Shown here one piece after another: positions 1 through 54,004 of a stretch of DNA of 64,000 nucleotides. Every line of letters starts with the position of its first letter. The stretch's first letter is position 1. This stretch comes from a virus, in IMG/VR virus record IMGVR_UViG_3300035670_000127, positions 1 through 64,000 of that record. One strand, given 5' to 3'. The notes beneath the pieces were generated by a model, which did no database searches, was not told the origin of the DNA, and saw only the letters and a list, made by a program, of their open reading frames with translations. A program made the position numbers and the translations under genes.

Positions 1-1
1 A

Positions 2-1527: not shown

Positions 1528-4500
1528 TCACTTACGGATAAGAGTAGGTTGCTGTCCTTTTTTGAGGGCGGCGACGACGGGGGCGGCTACCGTATTGCCC
1601 ATATTATTAACGGCATTTGCAATCATTGAGTCACGGCGTTCTCCACTTTGGTTGCCCATCTTTAACTCAGTCAGTAAAGCGGTCAAAAGCTCTTCAATAC
1701 GCTTGCTATTGCCAGTTTGCCCACTCTCGTTCGCCTGCGCCCGTATCCCATATTTTCTAAGATAACCGGCCGCTTCTGGGTCAATAATAATTTCTCCTTT
1801 GTGGACATTTGCGGGCATGTCTTTCGCCACATAAGGAGTGCCAACATCAAAGCTAGGCACGTCACTACTCGACCCTTCTTTACCCTTTTGTTCGTCCTCC
1901 GTCTCGGTAGCCGGTAAAGCGGCCTGTGTGACAGAAATTGAGATTCCATTGATAGCCTCTACCAATTCGTTATGGAATGCCAAATCTCTCTCGGTGGTGA
2001 AATTCCATTCGTATTGGTGTAAATCACTTAAAGATTTTTGATATTTCCCAGCCTCATAATGCCACATTAACGCGGTGGTTAAATCCTCATTTCTCCACAT
2101 TAACCTGACGGCATCTTGCATAGCCACTGCGGCCAAATCCTCCCCACGCCATGCTAATTCTTCAGCTCGCCATGTCGCCCAGCGTTGCCCTTCGGTCTCA
2201 ATTACAAAATCCCTGCTTTTTACATCTTCGTCTCGCCACTTGAGAGTCTGTTCCGTCGCCTCTTTTCTCAATTTTTCATTGGATTTAAGGTCGTCATCAC
2301 GTTGCACTTTAGTCAGGTCTTTCCATTGGATAAAGAGGTTATCTAATTTGATTATAATGTCCTTTGCCCCGCTAGATGACACACTGCCACCGATGCTGAC
2401 AGGACTACTGCCAATCCCCGCTTTAACGGCGGTGTTAGCAACATTTGAAATGCCAGTCGCCGTGCTAGTCAAAGCCGCCGGAGTTGCCTGCGACTGGGGT
2501 AGCTGTGCAAGATAATCTTGAATGCTAGTTGCCTTCATAGTCCCCACATTGGCACTGGTAAAGCCTGCTATATCCACTTTAGGGATGGTCGAGAGAGTGG
2601 ATTTAGTAGTGGCTAATTTACCATTCAGTCCATCCAAATCGGCCTTTAAGTCAGTCACCCCCATGAGGCTCTTTTTGAGTCCTTCTAGGGTCTCTTTAGC
2701 TTTTAGGAAGCTATCGTAGGTGTCTATCTTGACGTCGATCCCTTTGGCGTCAATCATTAACTGAGTCGACCTCTTATCCATAGCGGTGTATAATTCAGAC
2801 TCAGTACGTCCCTTATTAACAGTGGCCGACCCCATTTGCGATAACCCAGTCGAGAGTCCAGTAATGGCTAAATTCAACTCGCGGTACTTAGCAAGGTCTA
2901 TAGCTTTTGCATCATCTTGTTTAGCCTGGAACGCGGCGAGAAACTCCTTATTCGTTTGCAGATAGTTGGCTTTAAAGTTAGGCCAAAAACTATCCCAGTC
3001 AGTGTCTTTTCTATCCACTAGGAGTCTCTCCATAGCAGTGCCCAGCCCACCCATATCATCTCCCTTGAATCCGTAATCCGACTGTAGCATCTTTTTGATG
3101 CCTTCATTGTCTATACTACCACTGTAATCATAATCCCCATTAGTACCTCTTTTTTGAGTAGAGTATTTCGCCAGCTTATCAAAAATTTCATCAAAGGAGG
3201 CGTTGATATTATTCTTAGTGGCAAACCCACGAAAATCTGCAAACGCGGCAACGGCATTATCAATCGCCGTCTGATTATTAGCAAACCCCTTCTCCTTGGT
3301 GGCAATCTCTGCCTTAACCTTCTCCCCTTTAACCGCACCGATAAGCTCCCGCAACGGCCCCGTGATATTCCGTTGCATAGCCTCGTCAAGGCGTTGCGCG
3401 ACCTCCAATTGCTTTTCAGGGGATAACTGGGTCATCAATGCCGATATATTGCTATTAAGACTATCCTTAATCCCCATATCCATAGCCACTAAATAGTTCC
3501 CTAATTGAATCAATTGCCCCAGGGACGCTTGTTGCACGGCACTGATTTCAACTGCAAAAGCCGTGTCATCAAAGGTCTTAGCCGCTTCGGCCTCAAAGGC
3601 GACCTTCATAGCAACCAAGGAGGTATCTAATTTTTGTAACTCGTCCCTAGCGGCCTCTCGCAGGCCATTAATCTGCTTATCCGAATTTTCCCTGTCAGCC
3701 TGTATCTGCTTATCGGCATCCGTCTTAGTTTGTTCAATTAACTTATCCGTGTCAGTTTTTTGAGACTCAATGAGCTTAGTAAAATGCTCTTTTTGAGATT
3801 CCTGCATGGCAGTAAATTGTTCGTCTGGGATAGGAGTCGCGGCGGGGTTGGCTAGTTGACCAGTTAAGTCCCTATCCATAACTCCTAAGATAGAGTCCAC
3901 CGCTTGCAATTTATCATAAGCCGCTTGTTGCAAGGGTAGGAGGTTAGCCACGGCCTTACCTGTTTCTGTTTCGTCAATAGGCACGACCTTGGCAATCTCA
4001 GCCGCTTGCTTTTCAGCTTCGCTTCGCATCCCCTCTACATTTTCATTCACGTCATCAAAAATTTTGGCGTAGTCATCTGAACTGGCATAATAAGATTGTG
4101 CCTCTTTCAAGTAAGCCTGCGCTTTACCGGACACCTCACCCATAGCCGTCTCATCACCGCCCTTGGCTAAACGCATAGTTTCTTCATACTGGCGTCTCGC
4201 TTCCTCTAATCGTTTCGCAGGGTTAAAGGTGGACAGCTCTCCTAACTTCAAGTCATCTAAAAAGCCCTTGAGTTGCTTGGAAAAATCAATTAGCTTTTTG
4301 TAGTGGTCACGTTGCGTTTGCTGAGTCTTTTGTACCTCCTCAAAACGTTTATTCTCCGCCTCTATTTGTTCATTGAGTGACTCCAAAACGAGAGACTTAT
4401 ACTCCTCCAACTTCTTAACGCTCGCCTCGGTGACGGGCATGTTTTGAGAGATACTATCTTGAATAGCGGCTAACTTTTCAGCGGTGGAGGTGCCCGCTAA

Positions 4501-7500
4501 AGACATGTCCTTAGCTAACTTCTCAATATCGGTTGCGAGTGAGTCTTTGAAAGATGCGACGGCATCTTGAATCTTTTCAATTTCTTCACGTAGTTTTTTC
4601 GCGGCATCTTGTTGCTTCTCCGCGGTCTTTTGCTTCTCCTCACTTTCTTTTTCCAAAGCCTTGATAGCCTCGTCGCGGGTCTTTTCAATTGATTCTACTT
4701 GCTTATCGCGTGCCTCCTCTATTTTCTTTTGGGTTGCCTCATGGGCTTTGTTAATCCCATCAATCTCTTGTTCAAGCGCGGCCAGAATCGCCTTACGATA
4801 TTCCTCTCCTAATTTAACCGCCTGCTTCCCGTCTTCTATAGACAGGCGACTGGCCTCCTGTGCCGCTTTAATAGATTGCACTGCGGCCTCTCCTGACACA
4901 GCCAAAGCCGCACTGTTTTTCTGAAGGTCGGCCACCGTCAATCCTGCGTCCCTAATCGCCTCTGCGTCTAACTCGACGGGCTTACTTAATTGCAAGGGTT
5001 GGGTAATGGATTGGGTACTTTGCAAACTGACAGCGCTGGCTTGTGCAAACTCGCCTCTCGCTTTATCTCGCAATGCCACCTTAGAGGAGGTCTGATTAAG
5101 GTCGGTATTTATCTTGTCTATATCGTCCCCAATGGCGGACAACGTGCCTCCAAGGCTATCCACTAGCTTATTAAACTCACCTATGATTTCCTCATGGGCT
5201 TTTTGAGTCGCTTCCTTTTCTTTATTGATAGCCTCGATTTTGTACTTAGACTCATCCATAACCAGTTTGCGATATTTACCCAAATCCTCCACCGCTTTTT
5301 CAATAGCCTTTGGACTCTCCTTAGTCACCTCCTTAGCTAGGTCAAAGGATTGCAAGTCATTTAAACTCGCTTGCAAGGTCTTCATTTGGGCGGCGCGGCG
5401 ATTGGCTTGCAACGATTCAGATTGGGTATCAAAGGACTGAATATCAGACACGAGGTTATCAGACAGACTGGTCATCTTATCTGCCAACTTATTGAACACG
5501 TCAAAAAACTTATCAATCTGTTTCATCACCTCGGCCTCGGCGGCCTCGGCTTTCTTTTTAGCCTCTTCTGCGGCCTTCTCAGCCTCCTGTTTAGCTTTTT
5601 CCGCGGCCTCCTCTGCCAATTTAGCAGTTTCTTCTTCGTTGGATTTGACAGCACTGATATATCCTTTCGTGCTATTGATAAACTCATCCACCGTCACCCC
5701 AGCGGATTTAGCCATCGATTCCAGTCGACCTGTATCCATATTAGCAAGGGCATTGGCCATCGATTTAGAATCGCGGCCTAAAGAGGTGATAGCACCCGTA
5801 AGTGAGGGGTAGTCCTTTGCGGTTTTCTGAATAGTATAATCGGCGTCCTTTAATGAACTCCCCATTCTATCCATTTCGTCTTTGAAACCGTTTAAGGAAT
5901 CCGTGATGGCCTTAGCTTCGTCGCCCATTTGCTTCAGTGCGCCCACATAGCTATTCACGTCCCCTATGAACTCGTCTGTACTCACTCCCAAACCCTTAGC
6001 CATTTCAACTACCTTGTCAGGTGCCATTGAGGCAAACTGCCCGGCCACCTCCTCTGCGGTTTTGCCACTCAAGCCTAAAGACGAAATTAATCCGGGATAC
6101 TTGCTAGTCACCTCACTGATAGCAAACTGAGAGTCAGTCATACCACTGGTCATCTTTTTAAATTCGTTTTGCATCCCTTTGACGCTATTGATGGCACTCT
6201 TAGTTTCTTCCTCTTGAGAGGCAAGGGTATTGATATAGGTCGTGGCATTTTCCAAAAACTGGTCGGTGGTCATTTTACTGGCCGCGGCCATATCTGCCAG
6301 TTGCTTATCATCTAATTTAGCCAACTGAGTCGCCGCGTCTTTAGAGTTGCCACCGAGGGCTTGCATATTGGTGATTAATCCAGGGAACTGAGTCGTGAGC
6401 TTACTCATAACCAGCTCGTTTGCTGACATCACCCCTCCCAGTTTAGACATTTCGTCTCTAAAAGAGGTCATTTTCTCCGCTTGCGCCTTCGTCTCCTCTG
6501 CCTGTGCATTCAACACCCCGATATAGCTATCCACATCGGCCATTAAGGTTTCGACACTCACATTCAAAGACTTGGCCATGTCAGCAATTTGCTGTTCATT
6601 CATAGAATCGAATTGCTTACCCACCTCCTGGGCCGTCACCCCGACCTTAGATAACGAATCGGCTAAACTAGGGTACTTACTCTTGAGTTTATCCATAGTG
6701 GCTTCATTATCCGTCATACCTGTTGCCAACTGGTGCATTCTATCTTTAAACGACCCTATCTGCCCTTGCAATTCCTTAACAGCCCCTAAGTAAGCCAATG
6801 TCGCCTCCTTAGCTTCGTCGGCGGCGATACCGTTGCCGGTTGCCCATTGCGCCACCTCCTCATCGGTCATACTCTTAATTGCGGTGGCCGCTTCAGTGAC
6901 ATTCACGCCCATGGCATTCGTTGCAAGGTTAAGGGCAGGGTACTTATTAGCTAAGTCAGTAATTGTCTTTTCGGCCCCAGTGAGAGGGTTAATTAAATCA
7001 TCTAATCCTGTGCGTAGGCTTGCGAAAATATCAGTGGTAGGCAACGTGCTAACAAAAGACTGAATATCGGCCTTTAAGACATCCGTGGTGACTCCTAAAG
7101 AAGCGGCCAGTGCGTCTAAGTCGGCGTCACTCATATTGGCAAACTGGGTTGCCGCTTGCTGTGCTGTTTGACCAGAATTGAGAATTTGCTGTGACAGGGA
7201 GGGGTACTTATCGGCCAGTCCATTGAGAGTCACCTCATTATCAGTCATTCCCTGACCCAGTTTTAGCATAGCAGAATGAAACGAGTTGAAAGACTCCTCA
7301 TTGGCGGCCATGGTATTAACCCACGTCGTGCTATCCGTGCGCAATTCGTCAGTGGTCTTATTCAGTGATTTAGCCAGTGACTCAAATTCAGTGTCGCTTA
7401 AACTACTAAAGTAGGTCGCGGCATCTTTAGCTGACATAGAGGAGCTGTTAATGGTGCTCGCTAGGGTTGGGTAAGAGGCTGTTAGGTTTTTCAAAGCAAT

Positions 7501-10500
7501 ATCGTTATCCCCATACGTCCCCGTCGCCTTTAACATCGTTTCGGTATAACTAACCATTGCCTCCCGATTGGATTTGACCGCTTCATCATTGGCGGCCATG
7601 GCACCGACCCACGCTTGAGAGTCAGCTAAAAATTCGGCGCGTTTTTCGCCATAGATACCCAGTTGATCCATCAATGCCTCCATATCCATAGTTGCGAACT
7701 GAGTAGCGGCCTCCTTAGCCGTCATAGAGGAATCATTGATAGCAGACGATAGCATGGGATATTTAGCCGTGAGTCCTTCCATTGTCACTTGAGAGTCGTT
7801 GGCAACCCCTGCGGTTTTACGCATTTCATTTTGGAAGTCAGCAATCGATTTAGTGCTCTCCTTTAACGCCTCGTCCTGACTCTTAACCACTCCTAGCCAT
7901 GTAGAGGCGTCGGCCTTGAGAGTGTCAAAGTCAGTCCCCAAAGAAGCGGCGAGAGCCTTCAATTCGTCATCTGATAAACTATTAAACCGTTCCGCGGCCT
8001 CCTTAGCAGTGAGAGAGGAATCGTTAATGATACCTGACAGGGCTGGGTACTTGTCACTCAGGTTTTTGAGTGACACTTCATTTTCAGTCATTGACCCACT
8101 CATAATCGCCAGGCTATCTCTAAATTCCCTCATACTGGCCGCTTGTGCCTTAGCTTCTTCCGCTTGTGTTTTAGTCGCCTCCTCTATTGATTGGGTGGAA
8201 CTCACAAGCGTTTCAGCATCGGCCTTAAACTGGTCAGTGGTGACTCCAAAACGCACGGCGGCGCTGGCAATGTCGGCATCCGACATAGTTGAAAAATAGG
8301 TTGCTAATTCTTTAGATGACTTACCTTGAACCTCACTAAAGCCGCTATAAGTGCCGGCTAGTTTTTCTATACTAACCTGTGCATCCGTCGTCCCACTAGC
8401 AATCTGTGACATCTTGGTCCTAAATTCAATAAACCCTTGTGCTAAATTCTTAGTATCCTCCTCTATCGTTTTGGTGCTATTCACCCACGATTCAGTATCG
8501 GCCTCGAATTTTTCCACTGACACGCCATACTGGTTAGCCAATTGTTCAATTTGAGTGTTATCCATTGCACTGAAAAATTTAGCCATTCCTTTTGCATCCA
8601 TCCCTTGAGTCAAGTCGGTCAAATAGGGGCTCTTTTGAGACAGGTTTTTGACGTTTAGACTGGCGTCGGATTCACCTGTAGCCATTTGACCCATCTTGTC
8701 ACGCCATGAATCCATCCCTTGCTGTAACTCATTCACCGCCCCAAAGTAAGCCGTGGTCTTTTCTTTTAGCTGGTCGGTAGTGAGACCGTATTGTTCTGCA
8801 AATGCAACAAGCTGGTCGTCAGGCATGGCTAACATAGCTTTAGCCGCTTCCTTAGTATCCAAAGTCATAGCTTTAGCCGCAAGTCCTAAGCCGGCAAATT
8901 CTGAATCCAATTGGTTAATCGTTTGTTGCTTCCCTACCTTCTCCGGCGCGGCAAACTCTTGTAGAGAGTCACGGAAAGATTTCATAGCCTCTTCTTGCGC
9001 CTTCAAAGCCCCGACGTATGCTTCACCGTCTGCTAATAACTGTTCGACAGTCACACCTAAAGAAGCGGCGAGGCTCTCTAGTTGACCATCATTCATAGTT
9101 GATAACTGGGTAGCTAATTCCTTAGAGGTGACACTTTGGTCTGCAAACAATGCAGTGAGGGACGGATAAGACTCTTTCATTCTATCCAAAGTCAGTTGAT
9201 ATTCGGTGGTCGTCCCAGCCGTCACAGCCATCTTATTTCTAAACTCACCCATGGCTTTTTCGGATTGTTTCATCATATCCACTAATCCTAAAAAGTCACC
9301 CGTCACCTTAGAAACCTCCTGCCCCGTCGCAGTGGCTATGGCTTGCAATTCTTCAATACTCATATTTTGGAATGAAGCCATTAATTCCTTAGAGGAGTCA
9401 GCATTTAGATACTGCGCGGCACTGGTCTGCCCATAGACTTGATTCAACTCATACATGACCTTAGCATTGCCCTCTAATCCAAGGCTCATCATCTTAACGC
9501 CCGACCTAAAGTCATCTAAGTTTTTAGCCGCGGCCTTCGCTGCTTCTTGTGCCTCTTTCTTAGCAGCCGCTTCTTGTTCTCTCGCTTCTTCTTTAGCCCG
9601 TTTTTCCTCTTCTTTCGCTTGCTTCTCGGCCTCCCTTGCTTCCTCTTTCGCTTGCTTTTCAGCTTCTTTCGCACTGGCCTTATCTGATTCCTCTGCTTCC
9701 TTCGCGGCTTCAGAAGCGGTCTTTTCATTACGTGCTTGGAATATATACGGTGCGGCTGGTGATTGGTTAATGGTGTTGTATGCAGTCTCCCCAACGGTTG
9801 AGAATGTCTGTCCTATTTGGTCAAGTGCTCCGCTACTTTTCAGTTCACTCATTACCTGACCCATAACCTGTATCTTTTGCTTTGCATCTGCCACAATAGC
9901 GGCCAGGGCATCGGCGGCGAGTAAGCCACCTGTAGAAACAGCCGCCCCCGCCACCGTCCCGCCTGTTGCAACGTTAGTGGCCGACATCGTCCCGCTTTCA
10001 ATTAGGTTAGTGGCCGCGACGGTACTGCCAGTTGTCAGGTTACTTGTTGAAACGAGACTAGCGTCGGCTAAATTCGTTCCTGCGAGAGCGCCGGCGTCGG
10101 CTAGGTTAGTGCCAGCCATGGCGCCTCCTTCCGTGATATTCATAGCGGCTTGTGCTGAAGAGGATAGAAACGGCTCCACCACCCCTTGATAAATCGTTTG
10201 CATCACGCCGTTTAGCACCGTGCTAATCATTTGGTTATAGAATTGACTGGTGAAGTTGTCAGCAAACATTTTCCCAGCTTCCGCCGCCGACCCGACGTTG
10301 GCATCTGTGAGTACCTTCATTAAATCACCACCCAATGACTCCCCATTGATATTACTAAACATGTTGCTTTGTTCTTGTAGAATACCAATGTAGGTCTGGG
10401 TGTCGGCCATTAACGTCTCGACTGTTACCCCTAGCGCGTCGGCCATCCCCTGTAACTCCTCTGGACTCATTTGGTCAAAGAAGCCGGCCACTTGAGTGGC

Positions 10501-13500
10501 AGTCATTCCCGCGTTTTCAAGAGATTCAGATAGCTGTGGGTACTTGTCTTTTAGCTTAGTCAGTGCCGCTTCATTATCCGTTGCACCTGTTGCTAACTTG
10601 TGCATTTCGTCCTTAAACGAACCAATATTGGTTTGCAATTCAGAGGAGGCGTTTAAGTAATCCGTGGTCTTTTGGGTGATGTCTTCTATCGAAAGACCCG
10701 TCAACCCCATACTTTCTGCCCATGCCATCAGCTCCCCTTCAGACATGGTTGCCAATTGCCGTGCCGCTTCTTTAGTATTGAGTGTCAAAGCGGACGTACC
10801 TAGATTCAGATTAGGGAACTCCTTAGCTAAATCACGAATGGTCTTTTCTGCCCCGCCAGTGGAATCATAGATGCCTCTCATTGAGTCTCTAAATTTATCC
10901 ACTTGTTCAGAATTGGCATACAATTCGTCAAGGGCAGGGGCGAGTTTTAGAATAGAGTCATGTAGATTACGTTGCGACTCATTGGTCAAATCGAACCCTT
11001 GAACCAAATCAAACAGTCCCTTACGGGTCTTAGGTACCTCTAACCCCAAGCTCTTAAACGAGTTGCCAATCGACTGATTGAGGTCGGTGGCCTTCTTAGC
11101 TTGCTGTTTAAGGGAGGTGCCGGACGTGCCTCCAAATTTTTGATTGAAGTCCTCTATGGCTTTGTAGTAATTAGCAAACTGTGGGGCGCCTTTAAGGAGG
11201 GCACTGAAAGTCGCTTCACCATCTTTACCCAATTCAGAAACAGATTGAGTGAGTTTAAAAAACTCCTCACGGGTCTGTGGGAAGGCGGTATTGATGCCAG
11301 GCAACGTTTGTGACTGAATCTCTTTTAAGGAGGTGTTTAACCCAGTGAGACTGTTACTGAATTCGAGGTTAGTGCCTGACACTGAAGCGAAGTTATCCTT
11401 AAAGAAGCCAAGGGAAGCACTGAATTTATCCATGTCTCCAAAACCCTTAACAAGGTCTTCAGAAAAGACCCCCATGTTAAGACCAGTCTGTTTAAAGACT
11501 TCCTTCGTCTCCATCATTTTACCAATGAATGCCGTAAGCTCCTGTTCCGTTCCCTCGAAGCTACTTACCATAGATTTAAGTGTTTTGTAGAAACCCGCTT
11601 CGCCTTTATCTTTGATGATAGTTTCTCCGGTGACTTCCTCCCCGCTGGCAAGTTTAACGGCATCTTGAATACGGGTTGCGAACACCTCTGCTAACTCGCC
11701 ACTGATAGACTCAGGTAGGGCGATTCCAGTCAGGTCGGTGAAAATTTTACCTATCTCGCCCGTCAAGGTACCTTGCAATTCGTCAATAGGCATCCCCTTC
11801 ATTTGTTCGGCGGAGGCATTTACAAATTCAGTGAGACGTTCCCCTAATTTAGCAGACACGTCATCTTGCAACCCGCCCTTGACCGCGGTGTCGGCACTGG
11901 CAACGAATTTGGTTAAAACTCCGTCCCACGTCTCAGCCCGTGCGGCTTCACTAAAGGTACCATCTAAAACTTGTTTAAAGGTATTCTTAAACCCGCCTCC
12001 TAAATTCGTCTCGATGTCCTCGCCTGCAACCATGATATTATCGACGGCTGACTTGACCATCATCACACGCATCTTTTCAAAAGCCTTATCAAACCATTCG
12101 GGGCCTTTATTTTCCATAGCGGCGATGTGATAGCGGAAGTTATCCATTTTTCCTAAGAGACCGTTTTTATCCATTCCTAATGACTCACTCACGGCCTCAA
12201 TAGATTTTTTCGTTTCCCCTAGCATGTCACTAAGTTTTTTGACGCTGGCATCATCTAGGGATTCATGTCCCATTTTAGAACCGCCTAGCCATCCCTTCTT
12301 GGTTTCTTTAAAGCCTTTGCCAAAAGAGGCTGACATGCCCTTCATAGAAACCTCTACCCATTCGGCCTCACGTACCCATTTAGCACCGATACCGGATAAG
12401 GACACTAACTTGCCTGCTATCATTCCTCCAATCGGACCGAGTGGAGTCATAGACCCTAACAACTGGGCTGCCCCAGCGGCGGCGCCGGCCATGTCACCTG
12501 AGAGTAAAGAAGTGGCGGCTGACAGAGCCGACATACCTGGCGTCGAACCGCCTCCTAATAAAGAACTGATTCCTTTTCCAACCTCTCCAAATGAACCCGT
12601 GAGACTACCTAACTGACCGGACAAGCCACTGATAAATTTGCCAGCCTCCTCGGTGCCACCCATGAGTCCGCCTAAACTCTTAGTTAATGTGCCCGCTAGG
12701 TCGCCTTTGCCTCCTAATAAAGAGCCTATAGAAGACATGAGTCCACCACCTTCTTTACCCCCACCTCCAAATAAACTACCGATGCCTTTGGTGATAGATG
12801 ACATAAAACCGCCACCCTCACCTCCGCCACTGAATAAACTGCCAATGCCTTTGGTGATGGTACTCATGAAACCACCGCCTTCTTTACCGCCTCCAAATAA
12901 ACTGCCAATCCCACTGGTTATGGAAGATAGGAAACCTTCGCTTTTGCCACCAGCCCCTCCAAAGAGGTTACCAATACTACTCGCCATGTTTCCAAAAAAG
13001 CCCTTAACGCCATCCGTGATGCCCTTAAACATATCCATAATGCCACCGCTTTTTCCTTCGCAGGCGTCCTTTGCTACGTCCGTTGCTTCTTTTAGGTCGG
13101 CGGCCTTTTCAATAACGGGGTTGTTAGTGGCTTCGGCTAAACATTGTCCGGCGGCTTGTGACAACCCCTCCTTCGCTTGGTCTGCTATGTCGGCCACCTG
13201 TTTAGTGGCATCGCCCGTGGTTTGTACAATAGCCTCCCCTGCGGTTTGGGTACTGCCTGCGTGGGTTGTCATAGCCACGGTATCTTGAGTGATACTGGCA
13301 ACCCGCGACGCCTCGACTGCGGCCATAGCTTGGTCAAAGGAAGCGGCTGTAGAAACTTTAGTTGCACCCAAGGTAGCCTCCACCGCGGCCAGTTCCTGCT
13401 GGGCGGTGGCTTGGGCTTTGGATGCGTCGGCGGAAGCATTGGCGGCGGCTAAAACAGTTTGCGCATGTTTTTCAGAGGATTGCTTTTGAAGGTCGGTGGC

Positions 13501-16500
13501 GGCGACCTGCGTTTGCGCTTGTGTTTGCGCGGCTTTTGAGACGCCACCCAGTGCCTCTTGAACGTCCTTAGCGGCGAGTTTAAACGGGTCGGTGGCAAAC
13601 ATGGTTGCCTTCTTATTCTGTGCTAACCACTTATCTAATTCAGTCCATGCGACTCCACCGACTTGCTTGCCACCTTGTCTAATACTATGGGATTCAGAAA
13701 TACCCATTTTGCCCGTCACTTTATCCACCGTGACTTGCACGATGTGATCAATATTTTTGTCTATGTCACTCCCAGCGCGTACTCGACCTCTATCCCAGCC
13801 GTGGTCTCCTTTATCTAGGCCAATCATCATTCCTTCCCTTAATTGACCTTTGAAGTCGCCCGTTTTACGGCTGTCAATGAGGGTGCCTGTTTTATCTACT
13901 ATATTTTGAATGATGTTATGACTGGAATCTTGCAATAGCTTCATGTCGGCTTTATCAAACACCACCTCCCCCGCTTGTTGATTGATATTCTCAAAAGCGG
14001 TTTTGGTTAGTAGACTAACCCAGCCACTGCAATCAATTTTACCCAATTCGATATTCTTAGCACCCAGTTGATAGGACACGCCTTTCTGAATGTACTTGTT
14101 AGTGGTTTCTGATAACACGTCGAGGGTGCTATCATGTATTGCAACCCCTCCGCCGGTGGGTTGAGTGTGCGAAGGACTGCCTTTGATTGCTTTGGTGACA
14201 ACCTTAGTTGATTCCTCGGCCGCTTTGGCAGTAACAGTGACAACTCCTTTGCTAACCTCGCCTTGAAAGTCATCTTTAAATTGCGAAGGGAGGGGTAACT
14301 TATTCCATTTACCTATCCAACCCTGTATATATTTTTCAGCTAAGGCGACCCCACTGAGTCCTTTACCTTCACCTCCGACTAGATTTTTTTTGACGTTTCG
14401 TGTCACTTCACTACTAAGGTGATTAACGCCCGTGGTCAATGTTTTAAGTATCTGACTTAATCCGCCAGCCCCTTGATTATGCGCCATCCACGCCTTCAAT
14501 CCTTCATTGATATTCATTTTTTCAGCAGTCTCGCGCCAACCCTTGCTGAATTTATCCAATGTCTTCTGGTTAATCTCCCAATACTTAATAGCACCTTCCG
14601 CGGCGGCCCTTGGGTCATATTCTTTTCCAGAAATACCCACCTCTTTCGATGCCGCCCCCTTGAATTGGAATAATCCCATGTATCCAGAGGAGTTCTTTAC
14701 ATTCGCATTAAAGGAGGACTCCAATGACGCCATTCGACTTAATTCAAGAAGGCTGTAATTGAATTTTTTAGCCGCTCCCTCTAATGCAGATGCTACCTCA
14801 TCAGTGACCTTGACGTATTTTTGATTGGCAGATATAATCTCTTTATTGGTGGATACCACCTCTTTACTAGAGGTTGTTATTGCAGAGGGTGTTACGCCGG
14901 CAACGGATTGACTACCCACCACGCTACCTCCACCGCGACCTGCCCGACCAACTAAGACATCTGAAGCGGCCTCTTTTAAATTGGCGGCGGATTGTTCAAG
15001 GCTCTCCGCTTTACTGGCTAGAGTCGCCGCTTTTTGAATTGCCTCATTGACGTCAGCACCCAATTTATCAACTGTTTTGCCAATCCTCTCGCCGGCTTCA
15101 TTGACGGCTTTGGCGATGGTGCCAGCCGCGCTATTCGAAGCCTTCCCCACTTGTTCACCTGACTTCGCCAGGAACTGGGTAGCCTTATCCATATCGCGCT
15201 GGACAGATGAATTGGCATTCTCTTTCCCTAACCCAAATAAGCCTAAGAATTTTTCTTTTGCCTTATTTTGTAAAGCCTCTTGCTGTGATTTTAGAACGTC
15301 CTTAAAGAAACTTTTAAGGGCACTTTTAGCTGACATTTGGCCGCTTGAAAACGAATCAAAGTAGCCTCCCGCTTTTTCACGTAGGACTTCCAATGATTTC
15401 TTTTGGTCTTCTAACGCTTGCTTTTGTACGTTAGCAGATTGACGGCTTTGGATGATGCGTTGCCCCTCTTCCACCCCCACTTTACGCATAATTTCAAGAT
15501 ACTCAGTTTGCTTATCAGATAAAGTGGATTCTGATAGTTGCTTTTGCATCTCACTCAGTGCCTTCTTGCGTTCGGCCAATTCCTGAGTTTGGGATATTTC
15601 TAAAGCGATTTGTTCTGGGTATTTTTGCTGTAGGTCAAAGAGACGCGCTTGTGACTCTGTCATCGTTGCTTTAGCCAATTCATTTTTAGCCGCGGTCAAT
15701 TCTTGATTGGCATTTGCTAACAGCTTAACCTGTGCGATTTGTGGACCGTATTCAACACCTTGGTCTTTGACGGTCTGGAAGGTATCTCTCTGTTGGTCGG
15801 TGAATCCCGATATGGCCAATTCATCACGAGCATTGGACACCGTTTCATAAGACCCTTTCAGTTGCTTTGCATAATCCTCCGCTACCTTCGTCACCTCTTT
15901 ATATTTATCTGCCAACTTTAATAAATCTGATGCTTGGTCTCTTAAACTGTCTTTAATTTCACGGGCAGAATCTTTTGCGGCTTCGATGTTAGCTTTTTCC
16001 ATTTGCCTTGCGGCGGCCCCGGATTCCTTTAAAGCCTCATTCTTTTGTTTATAGACCTCCCCTAATTCACGAACCGCTTGCTTCGCTTCGTGCGCGACTT
16101 TACGGGCTTCCACTAACTCGGTGCTCTTAATCTGTTTCTTCTCCCTACGGCTACTGGTTTCTGCAATCTTTTGTTGAATCTCAAATACCTTATCCGAAGC
16201 CGCTTGCGCCTGCGCTTTAGCCGCTTCGAGGGCTTGTTTAGCACCATCGACGTCGGCTTGCAAGGCACTGACTGACGCACTCGAAGCCTCAGTTAAACCA
16301 GTTAATGCCGTCCCTGTTTGAGTGGCCATGTCTTGCACTGAACCTACTAAAGCACCGCTGTTTTGAGAGACGCCTTCGGCAAGGGTTGCAGGAATTGATT
16401 GACCTGACTTAGTGAGGTCTGATAACGGCCCCTCCTTAGCGTCTGAAAAGGGGAGATATTGACGAACCGCGGTTAACGAATCAGAAACGGTTTGGGTTAA

Positions 16501-19500
16501 TTGGGTAGCACCTTCTTTAATCCCAGTGCCTATAGTGGCAATCAATTTACGCCCTGACTCTGCAAAATCAATTGAGGTGATGTAATTCAATACCCCATCA
16601 AAAACCTCACGCGCCGACTCAATTAGGAGGCTTGCACCTCCTGCGATAGAGGTTTTTAGTTTATTAATTATTTGCGTCCCTTGGCCTATCCAATCGATTC
16701 CTGACAGGTAATTGGTCACGGCAGTAAAGAGACCTGTCACGGCATCTACTATTAAGGTTGGAACGCTTAGGATTCCATTTACGAACGCCTTGACCAAACC
16801 ACTGCCACTAGCAACCAATTGAGAGAACGGACCCTCTTTGGCATCGCTATTGGGGAATAGATTCCAAATGTAACTAAACACACCCGCAACCGCGTCATAA
16901 ACCGCTTTACCTGCGGATTTAATTCCACCCCAAAACGCTGTGAGGAGACCCACACCAGACTGATACCATGATTCAGGTAAAATGGCACTGATAGCCATTT
17001 TAACTAACCCTAAAACCGCGGAGGTTAGATTAGATGCGACTGACCAAATACCTTTAACCAATCCTGTTATCAGTGCCAATGCCGCGTCCCCAAAATTGCC
17101 ACTGCTAATTGCCGCGGTAACGTCCCCAATCATGGTGCCTACGATTCGAGTGAGGTCACTAAATAAGTTAGCAGGCGCCATGAGAACATCACCCAACCCA
17201 CGCCACATTTCATTAAGGGAGCCGGTGACTTGTGAAATCCCCGCTGGTAAATTTTGGAAAGAGGTCAGGAGGCCGTTAGCAAAGTCAGCAAATCTAAAAT
17301 TGGCAACCGCTGTCACTGCTATTTGAATAGCTTCACTGACGGCACGACCAAATTCTATAAACACACCTACCACTGCAATAGCTGAATCCTGGACTACTGT
17401 GAATTGACTATAAAGAAACGAACCTATCTGCCAACCGACGAAAAATGCCGCTAGGCCACCTGCGGCTGTGGATACAGCTGTGAATGCACCTCCTAGTGAG
17501 ACGAGACCCATAGAGATTGCAGTGAATGCACCCATTCCTACAACCTCCAAATTTTCCATAGCTAAAGCAAATCCATCTGTTAGAGGTTGCAGTAAGCCAA
17601 AAGAGGCTAACATCTCCTCAAAATCTCGTTTAAACTTCTCCTTGATTTTGCTTAAATCAAATGCCGACTCTAGGTTAGCTTGGGTTTGTTGCGTTTGTGC
17701 GCTATTGTCAGGTAACATCCCCATTTCTGAAGCGGAGGCATCCTGACTTGAAAACATAGTGAGACCCACAGTGCCAGCCACCGCGGCTGTCATTATTGCG
17801 GACTTCTTGCCTAACATCCCACTTAATCTTGAACCCGTGGTCGCGGCGGCAACTTCCCCTTGAGTGGTGAACCGTGCCCAGAAATTGGCAGTGTATGCAG
17901 AGGCGGCAGTGAACGCACGTCCTATGAAACCACTGACTGGGGCAATAGCAGGGGCGGCTAAACCTCTAAACCGTGCCCAGAAATTGACAGTCGATGCCGA
18001 TGCAACCGTTAGACTTCGGTTAAGTAACCCAGTCGTCGTCGCTATTGCCGCAGTCCCCATGGTTTTGAAACTCGCCCAAGTGTTTATCATTAGGCCGCTT
18101 CCGGCAACCCACATTCTATTCAATAATCCCACACCACCTGACGTAGCCGTCTTTAATTTGGTTACGAATGAGGAGAATAGGATTGTAGAATGGGCACTTC
18201 CTGCAATCCACATTCTTTGAATAAAACCAGTTGCTGAAGTGGTTGCTAACGCCGCTTGTTGACGGAATCGTGTCCATAGACTTTGGATATTAGGTGACAA
18301 TCTTTGATAAGAGGCGGATAGATAGGTCGAGGTGGTTGTTATCGTTGCCAACGCTTTGGTTTTAAACCCCTGCCATAGAATCGAACCACCTACAGTTCCC
18401 ACTACAAACATGCGTTGCAAAACCATTCCCGTGCTACGTGCGGCAACAGTGGCAGACTGGGTAAAGGACGCCCACAAAACAGGAATGCGGGTCATAGACG
18501 CATTCCAAAGGTTTAGCATAAACGGCTTAAACCCGGCGATTGCGGCTGTCCCCATGGCTTTGAATTTTAGCCATGCGGTATTCCATAAATTGACAAACGT
18601 TGCACCCATAACAGTCATACTGCGTTGCAACATCTGTCCAACCCCTGCTAACGCCGCTTTTGCGCTGAGTTTAAAACTCTCCCAAAAACGAATTGGATAG
18701 GCACTCGCCACGACCCACATTCGTTGCATATAACCTTGCATTGCAACCACGGCACTGCTATTTTTGAATGCAGTCCAAACACGATTCATCTGTGTGGTCG
18801 CGAAGGTGCTAATTGCGGTCCATGCCCGTCGCCAAATTGAAACAGTTTCATCTGCCGAACGGCGGCCACCGCTTCTTTGTGGAGGCGGTGGCGGTGGTAC
18901 CGGAGCTTGTTGCTGACTCTGTTGACCCATTGGCAACCCCTGCATCCCACCTCCTTTATTTTTGGTCATTGCTTTTTTAATAGAGGAGGTAATCGCAGAG
19001 GAGATTCCGTAACTTAATGCACCAGCAAAAACGGCCGCTAACGCCACAGCCGCTGGTTTTCCTAAGTCCTCTACTTTCTGAAGTGCCCATTCCAAACCAC
19101 TGGTGATACCACCTCCTATGGATTGGCCAAAATCACCAAATAGAGATACCAAACCACGGGTGATTAAATCACCAAGCGCACGGCCAATTTCACTGATGCC
19201 GTTTTGTTTTATGGTCTCAATAAACGCCTTAACCTCGTCCTTATAATTAGCTAATGCACCCAGTGCCGTTGGAATAAAACTTAATACCAGGGTCAAGGGA
19301 TTCGTGGCCTTTAACAACAATGGAACTAACGTCATAAAAACAGGGACGAAAGCCGCTATACCTGCTATACTTGCAATAGCAATTTTTGACATGCTATCAA
19401 GGTCTTTCCACCATTTTATAATTCCGCTGATAGCATCTCCTATTTCAGTTTTAAAAGCCCAAACCGCCTGGATTCCATTGTACAAAAGACCCCATGAGAA

Positions 19501-22500
19501 TTTACCGCCCGCAATCAATGCTATGTTAATCAATTCGTTCCCTAGCGATTTGATTAACTTCAATTGGTCTTTTGAGAAAATAGGGTCTTGTTCCATCACC
19601 AATTCTTGACTGGCTTTAGCAATCCCTTTCACCCCATTCTCTGCACCTACGGCATCTTCTTTTATTAACCCAAAGGACTGCCCTAACGCAATGAAGGCAC
19701 TGGCATTTATCGCCGTCGCTTTGATGACAGTGTCGGCTGTCATCTGCATAGAAATTCCTAAGCTCTCTATCTTTTTAGTGGTGAAGCTAATCGCAACCGG
19801 AATAGACTCCTTGAAGTAATTTATCACCACACTGAGCTTATCATGCACCATGAATGCAATCTGAGAGAAAATACCACCGATTACATCACTTACTTTATTA
19901 AAAGCGAAGCCGATTTTTTGGGCAATAGACATCCCTTGGGTCGCCTCTTGAAACCCAATGAATATTGACTTTACCTTGGTTTGCAATGCATTGATTCGTT
20001 CTAGGAAGGGGGCTATGATTGCGGCGTTAAACGATTTAGAAATAGTCGCCCAGTATAACGCTGTTACCTCCGCTGTCTCGTCCCAAAAATTACGCACTGC
20101 ATAAGAAATTTTTGGCCATATACTTGCGAACTTAGATAAAACCGGGATGACCCGTGCTAAGTATATTTCAGTGATAATTGCACCCACCGTAGTGAGGGAT
20201 GCGAGTATTGACTGAGCTGATAAAATAACGAGATTACGAATGGATAAGAATGCCGTTGCAATCGCAACACGGGTTAGTTGAATAGCCGTTGCTAATCTTT
20301 GACTGTGAATCACCATGTTTGCTATCGCAATGATATACCCTTCCGCAAAAACTGACAGTGTGACACCGGATAAACCAATTAGGAGACCTGAGATAACTAC
20401 CTTTTGAGTGGTATCAAGTTGATTGAAAAAGTTTATGGCCGTGTCACTCCAAATCTTAATTTCATTTAGGGAACGGTTTAGATTTTCTGTTACTGACACC
20501 TCTGCAAAAGTAGGGTGCCAATACTCACTCACTGATGCAAATAAGTCACGTACTACATTATTAAATTCTCTCCCCTGACTCCTTATCCCGGCAAGCATTG
20601 TTTCAATTAATGCCTCTCCACTTTCGTATAGAGTAGAAAACGGCCCCTCCTTTGCATTGGAATGGGGAAAGAGATTTGCCACATAATTGAATATACTTAA
20701 CACCGAGTCATAAATGTCTTTACCGGCTTGTGCAATCCCAGAGGCAAAAGTTGTCACCAGAGCGCGACCAGCGGAACTCATATCTATCATCATCAATGTG
20801 GATAGATTTTGTTCAATTTGGTCAAGAAAACTGAAATTCATTGCCAGGCTAAACTGCGCGGCAAGGTAGGCTACGCTTTGAATAAGAGAGTTTATTGAAC
20901 TTACAGCTAAAAAGATAACGGGCGTGAATAGCTTTATTCCTTCAACTAGCGGCACGATTCCAATGCTAACTACTTTTCCTAAAACAGTCCCCAATGCGTA
21001 GGCCGTTGCCCCAAATACCATGAGAGGCTCTGTCTCTCCAAATAATTTACTTAATTCATTTGACAGTGGGGCGAAGGCTTCACTTAAAATTTTTATTGAA
21101 GGTGCAAGGGCATCAAACAAACCTTCAAATGCGAGTTGAATGGGTTCAATACCGGCTAAGAATCCGTCTTTAAATGCAGTAATGACGGGGACGACTGACT
21201 GAATAACATCGACTATAGCTTGGATACTGGCAGTGCCTAATCGCACGATAGGGCGAAGAATAGGGACGACTATATCGAAAATGGATAATGCCATTTCCTC
21301 CATATTGCCAGTCAATTGATTCCAGTCTCCTTTGAGGTTGTCTAACATCTTTTTAGAGGCTCGGTCTGCAAACCCTGTGCTATCAGTCACGGTGGTTCTG
21401 AACTCCTTAAATTCTGTCGTCATAACCTTAACTGCTTTACCGCCTTGAATCACAGTTTTTTCAAATTCCTTTGACTTCTTAGCCAACTCCAACATAGCAG
21501 GCGTTGCTTCGACCCCAAATAGGGTTTTGAAGGTATCTAATTTGTCAGCATCCGTCATCTTTTCGGTGACTTTATTCAAATCTGCCATGATGTCGGCAAA
21601 ATCACGAATTTTACCTTTACTGTCAGAAACCTTTAACCCTAAGCCACCTATAGTCTCCGCGGCTTTATCGGTCGGCCCAGCTAACCTTAACATGGCCATT
21701 CGTAAAGCTGTGCCACCTGTGGTGTCGCCAATAGCAACGTTAGCTAACATACTGGTTGCCGCAGTGAGGGTTTGAATGGATTGGTTAGCCGCGGCAAAAA
21801 CGGGGGCACTGTATTTCATACTCTCCCCTAACTCACCCACACCCACATTACTTGCATTTGCCGCTTTAGCAAATAAGTCGGCAACCATAGTTGATTCTTT
21901 TGTTTCCAACCCAAATGCACGTAGCATTTTTGCCGCAATCTCACTTGACGTTGCCAAGTCCTCACCGGATGCCGAGGCTAAGTTCAATACGCCCGGCAAA
22001 GCTGACATGGTTTCATTAACTGTAAATCCTGCCCGTGCTAAATTAAGTCCGGCATCTCCCACCTGCGTCGCACTGAAAACAGATGCCTTGGCTAGGTCGC
22101 GCATCCCCCCCCCTAGCATACTCAATTGCTGGTCGGTTGCGTCTGATACAGCCGCTATAGTGGACATCCTAGATTCAAATTCAGAACCAATGACAACGAC
22201 CTTTTTAAAAGGTTCTGCCATTTGGCTAACTGAATCGATAATATTTTTTATGCTAAAGGCGAATTGGCCTATGGAATTAATAGAGTCCTTAAAACTCTCC
22301 TTAACCCCATTCGAAAAATCTTTGATTTTAGAATTTAAAGAAGTGAGAGGTTTTAAAGAATCAGTGGCAGAATCTTTAATGGCAGTAAAGCCACCTGCCA
22401 CCTCTTTCAATTGCTTATTGACATCGGCCATTTTCTCCTTAGTTCCCGTAAGCAACCCGGACTGTTTCTTAATTTCTTCAGATGACTGTCTATTGGCATT

Positions 22501-22686: not shown

Positions 22687-22810
22687 AGGTTCACCTGTCT
22701 TAGGGTTGCGTTTTAAATGATGTCCTTACTCTATAATTGTAATGTGCATTAATCACAAGAAAGAGGCTTTGACAAGATAAGTTTTAGGGTGAAAAAACTA
22801 ACCTATTTTT

Positions 22811-23156: not shown

Positions 23157-23160
23157 GGTT

Positions 23161-53217: not shown

Positions 53218-53577
53218 TTAATTTTTATCACCTGCCCGTTTCAAAGTGCGATTCCATACCGTGGTGAATCGTGGAACGTTCAATTGGCAGCCACGGTATT
53301 GCATAAGGAGTAGGGTGCGCGACTCAGTGGGCAGGGAGAGTAAAATTTGATAGATAGGATTATTGTGGTTACGTTGTAAAGTCGCCTCCTTTTTAGGGAT
53401 TCGTAGCTTGGTAGTGAGTAGGCAAATTTGCAAGGTACGGTCAATTCCAATAAGTGACACGAGAGGTCGAATCGCCTTTGGGAAGCAATCCGTGTCCACT
53501 CGTTCGAAAAAGACCTGTACCTTGTATTGCATACAGGCCGACATCATACCTTGTAATTCCTTACTTATGCTTTTCAT
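53218..53577 (-). CDS. Mu Mor/C-like transcription activator (N-terminal-domain-like)
   Basis: LVSLIGIDRTLQI..LRIPK..LLMQYRGCQLNVPR pattern. Confidence 0.5.
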   Translation of the reverse strand: MKSISKELQGMMSACMQYKVQVFFERVDTDCFPKAIRPLVSLIGIDRTLQICLLTTKLRIPKKEATLQRNHNNPIYQILLSLPTESRTLLLMQYRGCQLNVPRFTTVWNRTLKRAGDKN

Positions 53578-54004
53578 TCAACACCCGTCTCGCTTCGCGT
53601 TCCATAATCTCTATACCCTCTATCATCAATAAGGACACACGTCCGAAGCCATAACGCTCTCGCACCTCTTCCTCTGGGGAGAGGTGATAAAGATTCACTT
53701 TGGCGTACAAAACCGACCAGTCCAATCCCAGAATGCCCCCCATGGCACCGTATAACCAATGACTGGATACACGTTGCCAAAAGAGGAAGGTTTCCCAGTT
53801 TTTAGGGAGGATATGACATTCGTCAGGGGTTGCCATTTGCCTAAATTGTTCGGCTAACTTAGCCGCGGTATCGGGGTCAACAAGGAGGTTAATATCAGAC
53901 TCAACCTCCTCTATAGGTTTATCGTCGCCCCCTTGACCGCTGGCCCAATAATTGGCAACCTCAACTAAATTATCCTCCTCAAATTGATTGCGGTACGACC
54001 CTAC
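53561..54004 (-). CDS. Tail assembly chaperone frameshift extension (gpT/DUF1799-like), reached by -1 frameshift
   Basis: The -1 frame is open from 54004 (VGSYRNQFEEDNLVEVANYWASG..) into NWETFLFWQRVSSHWLYGAMGGILGLDWSVL. Confidence 0.8.
   Translation of the reverse strand, partial: VGSYRNQFEEDNLVEVANYWASGQGGDDKPIEEVESDINLLVDPDTAAKLAEQFRQMATPDECHILPKNWETFLFWQRVSSHWLYGAMGGILGLDWSVLYAKVNLYHLSPEEEVRERYGFGRVSLLMIEGIEIMEREARRVLNEKHK

Follow-up and report, generated by a model that had tools for sequence, protein, structure and literature searches.

A 7,052-residue tape measure protein in an uncultured freshwater phage, and the very long non-contractile tail that it may specify

The stretch of DNA analyzed here (the window, positions 1 to 64,000 of IMG/VR record IMGVR_UViG_3300035670_000127, 64,000 nucleotides) comes from an uncultured freshwater phage, whose genome of about 81.2 kb closes circularly in a record of 81,363 bases assembled from short-read metagenome data. 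On the minus strand, an open reading frame at 1528..22686 starts with ATG and remains open for 7,052 codons with zero internal stops, exactly as the first-pass annotation had described it (one uninterrupted ORF of 21.2 kb). An AGGTGA Shine-Dalgarno-like sequence lies 5 nt upstream of this start, and the public gene call places the start 8 codons later, giving a product of 7,044 aa. The gene encodes a tape measure protein (TMP) and starts its own operon, upstream of which a promoter scan returned 4 sites vs 2.4 +/- 1.5 expected and was uninformative. Its features, and the first gene after it, are as follows.

1528..22686, minus strand: TMP gene, 7,052 aa, 752.9 kDa, 26% of the genome
21514..22101, minus strand: PF10145 PhageMin_Tail core, residues 196-391
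17857..18834, minus strand: about ten 33-residue repeats with W/F at fixed places and multiples-of-11 spacing, residues 1285-1610
14452..14778, minus strand: SLT lytic transglycosylase domain, residues 2637-2745
13597..14139, minus strand: conserved Cys/His domain, residues 2850-3030
12397..13089, minus strand: Gly-rich stretch (30% Gly) with three copies of a 21-residue GGFMSSITKGIGSLFGGG-type unit, residues 3200-3430
10912..12399, minus strand: highly conserved block of no known family, residues 3430-3925
10348..10911, minus strand: 96-residue repeat, copies 1-2, residues 3926-4113
5617..9528, minus strand: 96-residue repeat, 14 tandem copies, residues 4387-5690
1531..1989, minus strand: C-terminal end with a W-rich segment and a VHKGEIIIDP..YGI motif, residues 6900-7052
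1..1387, minus strand: candidate tail-tip protein, 583 aa, crossing the contig junction

The PF10145 core is recognized with E 2.3e-42 (145.6 bits vs a cut-off of 33.2), and a six-frame search of the genome finds it only here (153.1 bits). Among other ruler families searched in the whole genome, PF06791 gave no match and PF20155 gave sub-threshold matches only, all of them within the TMP ORF. Twelve PHROG families annotated as tail length tape measure protein match the TMP, 11 of them at residues 13-1307 and phrog_58 at residues 1600-2282, and a tblastn search with residues 1-3000 matched 1,334 phage records, where all 25 of the matches listed are annotated TMP genes. W/F repeats with a period of 11 or a multiple of it have been described as the 'tape marking' of TMPs (PMC3271669). 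Residues 1285-1610 contain 16 Trp, and of the 15 gaps between neighbors the final 10 are multiples of 11, as are the distances in 48 of the 120 Trp pairs; this classic marking is restricted to about 330 of the 7,052 residues. We conclude from these matches that the ORF is a genuine tape measure gene and the sole one in the genome. The earlier claim of TMP hallmarks at both ends thus stands for the N-terminus, and for the C-terminus it comes down to a resemblance seen by eye: the last 130 residues contain '..VHKGEIIIDP..YGI', which looks like the way in which five giant PF10145 proteins, all of them unrelated, end ('P[GH]E[YF]V..').

Two relatives belong to the same phage lineage and have genomes colinear with this one, namely IMG/VR IMGVR_UViG_3300007177_000352 (hereafter G001; 83,384 bp, TMP of 7,676 aa) and metagenome contig Ga0315902_10000317 (82,480 bp, TMP of 5,389 aa). 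The tube protein is 86% identical in this lineage, and in G001 a 16-kb head-tail block is inverted relative to this phage. The TMPs are colinear to their ends from about residue 1500 (G001) or about residue 2200 (Ga0315902_10000317), and 62 and 55, respectively, of 69 TMP fragments of 200 aa find a match. The differences in TMP length lie chiefly in the hydrophobic N-terminal third, where residues 700-1400 are without counterpart in G001.

Further inside the TMP, the SLT domain (PF01464, E 3e-6, 27.2 bits vs 21.3) is 85-87% identical in the relatives, the Cys/His domain is 70-80% identical in both, and the block at residues 3430-3925 is 66-92% identical. The Cys/His domain contains C2886, one of only 3 Cys in the TMP, and has no Pfam match and only chance-level sequence matches in the PDB; it is possibly a peptidase, a guess from its motif. 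The conserved block gave no PDB sequence match, only sub-threshold Pfam matches and, in the Atlas, hypothetical clusters with low recognition. All three look globular. The 96-residue repeat is new and amounts to 16 copies and 1,536 residues. Its predicted structure is a small helical bundle, with 4-5 short helices and one 41-residue helix per unit, and is discontinuous as a helix; the model covers a monomer and is of moderate quality (pLDDT 78, pTM 0.47). The fold has no match in the PDB at E <= 0.001 (best E 0.98), and a profile search found the repeat in no other protein, which is weak evidence for its absence elsewhere since that search covered only proteins of 344-2,000 aa. Searched by tblastn against 50,697 isolate phage records, neither the repeat array (1,765 aa) nor the C-terminal 400 aa of the TMP gave a match. 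The C-terminal end is conserved in both relatives.

The genes for the tail tube and its assembly form a separate block.

53561..54028, minus strand: -1 frame extension (GT form), 155 codons
54001..54507, minus strand: tail assembly chaperone G, with an A8 slippery run at 54005-54012 directly before TAG
54581..56077, minus strand: tail tube protein, 498 aa, two fused tube domains (about residues 4-350 and 356-498) with an insert at about 113-247
56095..56889, minus strand: tail terminator
57666..58106, minus strand: tail completion / Neck1 protein

This block had been taken to neighbor the TMP, which we correct here: the TMP gene lies about 31 kb away (chaperone end at 53561, TMP start at 22686), with portal, regulatory, partition and replication genes in between, so that it is not directly downstream of the G/GT chaperones, and the same separation is found in G001. 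The gene content claimed for the block was otherwise confirmed. The tube protein has no Pfam match at E <= 0.05, and its model (pLDDT 87.2) matches T5 pb6 with Z 26.0 (rmsd 2.7 A over 305 residues) and the tube of P74-26 (PDB 8ED0) with Z 25.1 (rmsd 2.7 A, 295 of 348 residues). Across 9iny_A, 8xan_A, 7qg9_A and 8ed0_A the match is Z 25-26 over 288-306 residues, against only Z 7-8 for single-domain tubes, which align to residues 4-350 or 356-498. Foldseek gave 11 matches at E <= 0.001, each of them a tube protein or one that resembles it, and PF18906 (Phage_tube_2) scores above its cut-off in four of the eight phmmer relatives tested; of the negative four, one is related over its full length and the other three through the insert only. 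We infer from the model that the protein would form trimeric, pseudo-hexameric rings. Gene G ends in GAC-AAAAAAAA-G-TAG, and the open -1 frame matches phrog_680 (tail; E 4.8e-14). Both the slippery site and the -1 frame are kept in G001, and we regard the pair as a putative G/GT-type chaperone with a predicted programmed -1 frameshift. The terminator matches PF23840 (E 3e-11, 43.9 bits vs a cut-off of 27) and the Neck1 protein matches phrog_26 (E 1.9e-28); between terminator and chaperone there is a single gene only. A sheath gene, reported as missing in the first-pass annotation, is indeed not seen: across all 81,363 bases of the record PF04984 found nothing at E <= 1, while control genomes were positive, and all ORFs of at least 320 aa are assigned to functions other than sheath. 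By its gene content the tail is of the non-contractile type.

Downstream of the TMP, the 583-aa candidate tail-tip protein matches phrog_8917 and phrog_8610 and is followed, beyond the window, by genes of 278, 214 and 122 aa; the proteins of this group match only PHROGs of unknown function and zero Pfam families. Five phage records matched the 583-aa protein, two of which, from two cyanophages, are annotated 'tail protein'. The tip and tube proteins have weak matches to cyanophage, Rhizobium, Rhodobacter and Alteromonas phages, which do not settle the host, and a search of 185,579 species genomes gave no relative (37 pattern matches, 0 confirmed). No isolate phage carries DNA nearly identical to positions 1-24000 or 40000-64000 of the window.

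How long a tail would such a TMP specify? The first-pass annotation used a rule of roughly 0.15 nm per TMP residue and a TMP of about 5,000 aa for Thermus phage P23-45, and both hold up. The TMP of P23-45/P74-26 has 5,002 aa, with tails described as 'exceeding 800 nm' to 'nearly 1 um', and for the Gordonia phage Hotorobo the published description (PMC4982279) gives about 540 nm of tail for a TMP gene of 9,984 bp, i.e., 0.162 nm per residue. Measured long-tailed phages thus fall at 0.16-0.18 nm per TMP residue which, multiplied by 7,052 residues, predicts a tail of about 1.06-1.27 micrometres, and the predicted tail is most likely at least 0.8 micrometre long. Packing volume sets a floor to the tail length, near 0.2-0.4 micrometre: in a lumen 4 nm wide (PMC9022992), a TMP trimer would occupy about 217 nm at full packing and about 362 nm at 60% filling, so that shorter tails are physically possible.

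We favor, as somewhat more probable than its negation, the reading that the ORF encodes a single TMP of a freshwater phage with a long non-contractile tail, in which it acts as the length-setting ruler. We infer the copy number of the TMP, its extended state, the tail length and its role in ejection. By analogy with characterized TMPs, the copies would be held extended by the G/GT chaperones and would run the length of the lumen inside a tube composed of fused two-domain subunits, as in T5 and P74-26. Tube growth would halt at the N-terminal end of the TMP, and in this way TMP length would set tail length. At infection the TMP would be expelled, and its hydrophobic segments, SLT domain and Cys/His domain may help to open the wall and the membrane. 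Several observations do not sit easily with this reading: the TMP lies outside its canonical place after the chaperone genes, W/F marking is limited as described above, repeats folded inside the tube as modeled would add less length per residue, and the C-terminal 400 aa and the repeat array have no counterpart among the isolate phage records.

One could ask whether the gene is real at its full length, since the record is a short-read metagenome assembly in which repeats might have been expanded or unrelated pieces joined, the true gene being much shorter. The contigs that were mapped on the gene are short (the longest listed is 1,293 nt) and do not bridge it. However, the two relatives are independent assemblies from other samples and carry colinear genes with 16 (G001) and 12 (Ga0315902_10000317) copies of the repeat, against 16 here. 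DNA repeats reach at most 104 nt and 86% identity, the repeat copies being 60-86% identical, and TRF did not detect a 288-nt period; the DNA copies are too diverged for the repeats to mislead an assembler. Sequencing-run depth covers the TMP gene in 30 of 30 bins in three of four runs and in 17 of 30 in the fourth, with no indels at the listing threshold across these runs; the runs listed as containing it include no RNA dataset. The gene sequence was found again in lake, wetland and subsurface metagenomes, where one wetland contig carries an in-frame variant 83 codons shorter. Compared with the closer relative, pN is 0.15-0.50 and pS 0.70-0.86, with pN far below pS in all 18 windows along the TMP. 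An assembly artefact is therefore highly improbable, and the misassembly that the first-pass annotation had named as a way in which its claim could fall is not borne out.

A real gene of this length could still encode something other than a ruler from end to end. A true TMP whose chain is largely compact, with the bead-like repeats, enzyme domains and conserved block folded, would give a tail of about 0.3-0.7 micrometre and deliver much of its mass to the host envelope, an alternative that we take seriously but consider unlikely. The repeat model, with its bundle and one long helix per unit, fits such a chain, as do the presence of an SLT domain, the fact that conservation is highest in the Cys/His domain and the 3430-3925 block, and the trimer packing lengths given above. 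Giant TMPs need not be a ruler throughout: that of P23-45 begins with a folded RNA polymerase of 1,200 residues, so that there is a precedent for a giant TMP that includes a folded enzyme. On the other hand, measured phages keep to 0.16-0.18 nm per residue, P23-45 with its folded 1,200-residue domain included, three folded bundles side by side may not fit a 4-nm lumen, and a monomer model with pTM 0.47 is silent on the chaperone-bound or in-tube state. The suggestion in the first-pass annotation that much of the protein is folded cargo delivered at infection finds partial support in the globular-looking domains and the non-continuous repeat helix. We give much less credence to a cleaved polyprotein, in which the N-terminal residues, about 2,100 of them, would measure a tail of about 0.3 micrometre and the other 4,900 or so would become a separate product, within the virion or outside it. 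Those first 2,100 or so residues do resemble a complete ordinary TMP: alignments with ordinary TMPs cover residues of about 160-600 and a second stretch at about 1900-2110, the 878-aa TMP of Vibrio phage X29 is matched to within about 90 residues of its end, and 'AKEGP' is found three times, at residues 672, 1943 and 2077. But the motif resembling a TMP ending sits at the extreme C-terminus and is kept there in all three lineage members, the part of about 4,900 residues is colinear, in the same frame and under purifying selection in all three, neither a cleavage site nor an internal start is evident in the TMP, and the giant TMP of P23-45 is full-sized in virions.

Among the tails measured so far, the longest is that of a thermophile phage, whose ruler has 5,002 residues; the ruler here is 41% longer and that of the relative G001 53% longer. 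The earlier statement that this tail is among the longest stands as a prediction, but among the 9 giant proteins covered here the TMP is exceeded in length by that of G001 (7,676 aa) and by an unrelated PF10145 protein of 7,103 aa. Should the ruler rule apply, the tails of this phage and of G001 would be longer than any known from a virus, and this in a mesophilic phage, which would bear on what limits tail length, on why long tails go with fused tubes, and on what host surface makes a micrometre tail worth a quarter of a genome. If it fails, a TMP can bear kilodaltons of folded, repeated cargo, which changes how tail length is read from genomes. We tentatively speculate further, with less than even confidence, that this freshwater lineage, with TMPs of 5,389, 7,052 and 7,676 residues, has the longest virus tails, of about 0.9-1.3 micrometres, and that tail length is tuned in nature as copies of the 96-residue 'bead and rod' module are gained and lost. 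The idea of tuning is based on the 12 vs 16 repeat copies in the relatives and on the shorter in-frame wetland variant. P74-26, a hot-spring phage unrelated to this lineage, uses the same fused, trimer-forming type of tube, so that on this view tails of extreme length would have arisen at least two times with one tube architecture.

Among known systems, P23-45/P74-26 are closest in design, with a giant single TMP gene (gp96, 53287-68295) in an 84.2-kb genome, similar in size to this one, a matching tube fold and a non-contractile tail, which is also predicted here from the genes. The record for the P23-45 TMP notes a metallopeptidase domain, and the TMP described here also has a cell-wall-degrading domain. 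The sequences themselves are unrelated: none of 69 TMP fragments matches gp96 at E <= 1e-3, and the two tube proteins are unrelated by blastp (best E 0.54). An RNA polymerase of the gp96 type fused to the TMP was considered and rejected here, as there is no conserved DxDxD, the two D.D.D strings present are absent from both relatives, and no fragment matches gp96. The TMP of this phage is 41% longer than gp96 and contains 16 copies of the 96-residue repeat, while gp96 showed no internal repeats in the same test; in P23-45 the TMP gene directly follows the tube and chaperone genes, 31 kb apart here, and P23-45/P74-26 are hot-spring phages, whereas this phage is mesophilic and from freshwater. 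Outside subscription journals, our literature search gave no published TMP above 5,002 aa. The T5 tail is ordinary in length, against about 1 micrometre predicted for this phage, and T5 pb6, which forms trimeric, pseudo-hexameric rings, shares the tube fold. T5 pb6 carries a C-terminal Ig-like domain, where the tube protein here instead has an insert in domain 1, and the T5 TMP, pb2, has membrane-active and wall-degrading parts. The Gordonia phages Hotorobo, Woes and Monty, described in the same paper (PMC4982279), are siphoviruses whose TMP genes have about 9.98 kb and whose tails were measured at about 540 nm; the TMP of each is less than half the length of this one and takes up 13% of the genome, against 26% here.

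The tape measure protein (TMP) of this uncultured freshwater phage is encoded on the minus strand (window 1528..22686) by 7,052 codons with an ATG start, an AGGTGA ribosome-binding sequence 5 nt upstream and no stop inside; the public gene call places the start 8 codons downstream (7,044 aa). A 21-kb stop-free frame cannot be of chance origin, and with a Pfam match to PF10145 (PhageMin_Tail) at residues 196–391 (E 2.3e-42) the uninterrupted 21.2-kb TMP ORF of the first-pass annotation is borne out. The TMP hallmarks it saw at both ends hold for the N-terminus, where PF10145 lies, whereas at the C-terminus there is a likeness by eye, of a motif '..VHKGEIIIDP..YGI' to the ends of five unrelated giant PF10145 proteins. 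Further matches come from 12 PHROG families annotated 'tail length tape measure protein', 11 in residues 13–1307 and phrog_58 at 1600–2282. By tblastn, residues 1–3000 match 1,334 isolate phage records, with no record covering 80% of the query, and the best 25 of these matches all fall on annotated TMP genes. Since PF10145 occurs once in the genome, in the TMP, PF06791 was not found there, and PF20155 (TMP_3) gives four sub-threshold matches (window 5752–7533; best E 2.4e-4, 16.4 bits vs a cut-off of 41), all within the 96-residue repeat array of the TMP, we regard this ORF as the sole ruler candidate of the phage. The PF20155 matches hint that the repeat may be distantly related to this known TMP domain.

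Ordinary TMPs align to residues ~160–600 and then ~1900–2110, and for Vibrio phage X29, whose TMP has 878 aa, the second alignment comes within ~90 residues of the end of the X29 protein. Judged from these places, the protein resembles an ordinary TMP that has been expanded and has ~4,900 extra residues inserted ahead of its C-terminal end.

Features of the TMP (minus strand; residue numbers)
1 to ~660: TMP core
577, 763 and 1102: three segments of membrane-spanning character, hydrophobic third
672, 1943 and 2077: 'AKEGP' motif
1285–1610: 33-residue repeats, ~10 copies, Trp/Phe at fixed places
2110–2600 and 5691–6400: two long, highly charged stretches
2637–2745: SLT lytic transglycosylase domain (PF01464, 27.2 bits vs a cut-off of 21.3)
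2850–3030: conserved Cys/His domain, with 1 of the TMP's 3 cysteines and several histidines
3200–3430: Gly-rich stretch of 21-residue repeats, 30% glycine
3430–3925: strongly conserved block without known family
3926–4113 (2 copies) and 4387–5690 (14 in tandem): 96-residue repeat, 16 copies

Of 15 successive Trp spacings in residues 1285–1610, the last 10 are multiples of 11, and these Trp/Phe repeats are of the same kind as the 'marking on the tape' described for TMPs by Belcaid et al. (PMC3271669). The Gly-rich part holds three 63-nt (21-residue) units of the type GGFMSSITKGIGSLFGGG-E at window 12745–12936, and our guess is that they form a flexible linker or a membrane-active segment. When nine copies of the 96-residue repeat were made into a profile, all 16 copies scored E <= 7.8e-9 against it and eight other rows E >= 0.0034.

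Conservation of the TMP in relatives is highest (66–92% identity) in three parts: the SLT domain, the Cys/His domain and block 3430–3925. These are likeliest to be folded, delivered functions, and the SLT alone among them is identified; a motif judged by eye makes the Cys/His domain a putative, unproven peptidase. The Thermus phage P23-45 is a precedent: its TMP, gp96, begins with 1,200 residues that fold into an active virion RNA polymerase, and virions contain this enzyme within the undivided gp96 chain (PMC10770324). No such enzyme was found in the TMP studied here, whose two D.D.D strings lack conservation in relatives; nor does any TMP fragment match gp96. The proposal of folded cargo thus stands as far as the conserved domains, including the SLT, are likely folded, but a gp96-type RNA polymerase was not found.

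Two relatives allow the giant ORF to be judged as a gene: G001 (IMGVR_UViG_3300007177_000352; 83,384 bp, TMP ORF of 7,676 codons) and the metagenome contig Ga0315902_10000317 (82,480 bp, TMP of 5,389 aa). Fragments of 200 aa from the TMP were placed in the same order in both (62/69 and 55/69, respectively), the unplaced ones being confined to the N-terminal third, and the 96-residue repeat is present in 16 and 12 copies. Against G001, pS is 0.70–0.86, at or near saturation, and pN is well below it (0.15–0.50) in each of 18 400-codon windows, repeat array included; the TMP is thus under purifying selection over its full length. Misassembly of the repeat regions, named by the first-pass annotation as a possible objection, is unlikely, since the repeat copies are 60–86% alike as DNA over <=104 nt and Tandem Repeats Finder detects no 288-nt period in the gene. 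Words of the TMP gene are present in at least 20 sequencing runs, from 17 studies among the runs listed. Four runs were mapped: 30/30 bins were covered in three (two from lake water in other studies, one from the study that is the likely source) and 17/30 in the fourth; mapped contigs are short (longest among those listed 1,293 nt) and do not bridge the gene. Variants are mostly transitions, with no insertion or deletion at the listing threshold. A wetland contig (run X8, depth 8.6) lacks 260 nt of window 8735–8996 and has 11 other letters instead; the net loss of 249 nt (83 codons) keeps the reading frame, falls within the array of 96-residue repeats and looks to be natural variation in ruler length.

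The record from which the window takes the first 64 kb has 81,363 bases (CheckV completeness estimate 92%) and is listed by IMG/VR as linear. Bases 1–145 recur at 81219–81363, identical but for a single C/G difference at base 127, and a 583-codon gene crosses the junction of the contig ends in frame, so the genome closes on itself at ~81,218 bp; these observations point to a genome that is circular or circularly permuted, 26% of which is taken by the TMP ORF. At genome 69916–72606, a gene for a B12-binding radical SAM protein (PF04055 + PF02310) immediately precedes the large terminase gene; the head genes are distant from it, and both they and the TMP lie on the other strand.

The TMP gene usually lies after the tail chaperone genes. 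Here it stands 31 kb from them as the first gene of a separate operon, with genes for proteins of 583, 278, 214 and 122 aa without assigned family after it, and the separation is kept in G001. The head-tail genes form a separate minus-strand block (~48.8–61.6 kb) in the order protease, decoration protein, major capsid protein, adaptor, Neck1/tail completion, terminator (PF23840, E 3e-11), 498-aa protein, chaperone, four small ORFs, portal and minor head protein. The portal and SPP1 gp7-like minor head protein genes (window 50138–53577), downstream of the chaperone after the four family-less ORFs, are where the TMP normally sits, which makes the late-gene order unusual. A ~16-kb block (window 46000–62000; G001 19000–33000) with the head and tail genes and a sigma-54-type activator gene is inverted in G001, the genomes being otherwise colinear and in the same orientation; hence tube and TMP genes share a strand here and lie on opposite strands in G001. 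The chaperone gene ends GAC-AAAAAAAA-G-TAG, and its -1 frame, open for 155 codons, matches a tail PHROG; as slip site and frame both recur in G001, we agree that the chaperone is probably frameshifting. The reported lack of a sheath gene is likewise supported: no sheath family matches in the whole record and all ORFs of at least 320 aa are assigned to other functions, which argues for a non-contractile tail.

A search of the representative library at E <= 0.001 gave 1,811 relatives of the 498-aa protein, and four of eight scanned belong to PF18906 (Phage_tube_2). Its AlphaFold model (pLDDT 87.2, pTM 0.82; alignment of 113 of 150 listed matches) was compared with known tubes.

Structural matches of the tube model
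T5 tail tube (9iny_A): Z 26.0, rmsd 2.7 A, 305 residues
SH-Ab15497 major tail protein (8xan_A): Z 25.6, rmsd 2.5 A, 288 residues
P74-26 tail tube (8ed0_A): Z 25.1, rmsd 2.7 A, 295 residues

Single-domain tubes reach just Z 7–8, on residues 4–350 or 356–498 (structure alignment; Foldseek). With high Z to two-domain tubes and single-domain tubes matching one half, the model identifies a fused two-domain tube protein, in keeping with the tube gene annotated earlier. In T5 and P74-26 this type makes trimeric, pseudo-hexameric rings (PMC10034513, PMC9022992). An inserted, poorly modelled domain (~residues 113–247, window 55337–55741) recurs at 40–57% identity in the representative library, both in very large proteins (900–5,500 aa) that are of other kinds and in small ones (200–260 aa). 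No Pfam family was found in three of the small ones scanned, and the insert is probably a mobile domain that decorates the surface.

In Gordonia phages, a 9,984-bp TMP gene goes with tails of ~540 nm, or 0.162 nm per residue (PMC4982279). Tails of P23-45/P74-26 are given as 'exceeding 800 nm' to 'nearly 1 um' (PMC10034513, PMC9022992), and their TMP, put at about 5,000 aa by the first-pass annotation, has 5,002 aa, hence 0.16–0.18 nm per residue. At 0.15–0.18 nm per residue we would predict a tail of 1.06–1.27 micrometres here, 1.15–1.38 for G001 and 0.81–0.97 for Ga0315902_10000317. Packing volume can set a physical floor: a trimer, the copy number being assumed, is 3 x 752.9 kDa or ~2,730 nm3, and in a lumen 4 nm wide (PMC9022992) would fill ~217 nm at full packing and ~362 nm at 60% filling. 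A two-unit repeat model (AlphaFold; pLDDT 78.1, pTM 0.47; alignment of 20 non-overlapping pieces) has four to five short helices and one 41-residue helix per unit and matches no known fold. Should the units keep this fold within the tail tube, the contribution of the 1,536 repeat residues to tail length would fall short of the linear rule; the model is a monomer of moderate confidence, and the in-tube state is beyond its reach. Tail length, copy number, extended state and ejection are what we infer from how characterised TMPs behave.

Among 4,744 candidate proteins of 3,878–12,341 aa sharing words with the N-terminal 1,000 residues, seven match at E <= 0.001 (7,103, 7,044, 5,449, 4,777, 4,480, 4,446 and 4,287 aa), the second being the TMP itself in the public call. 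Once the TMPs of the two relatives (7,676 and 5,389 aa) are counted as well, it ranks third of nine, so it is among the largest, as had been expected, but not the longest, 7,676 and 7,103 aa being longer. In the literature searched we found no description of a TMP above 5,002 aa. TMPs and siphovirus tails as a kind are already known; what is new is the size of the TMP, the 96-residue module, the detached TMP operon and the co-occurrence of an extreme ruler and a fused tube. That tube is of the type common to P74-26 and T5, whereas the phage carrying it here belongs to an unrelated, mesophilic lineage.
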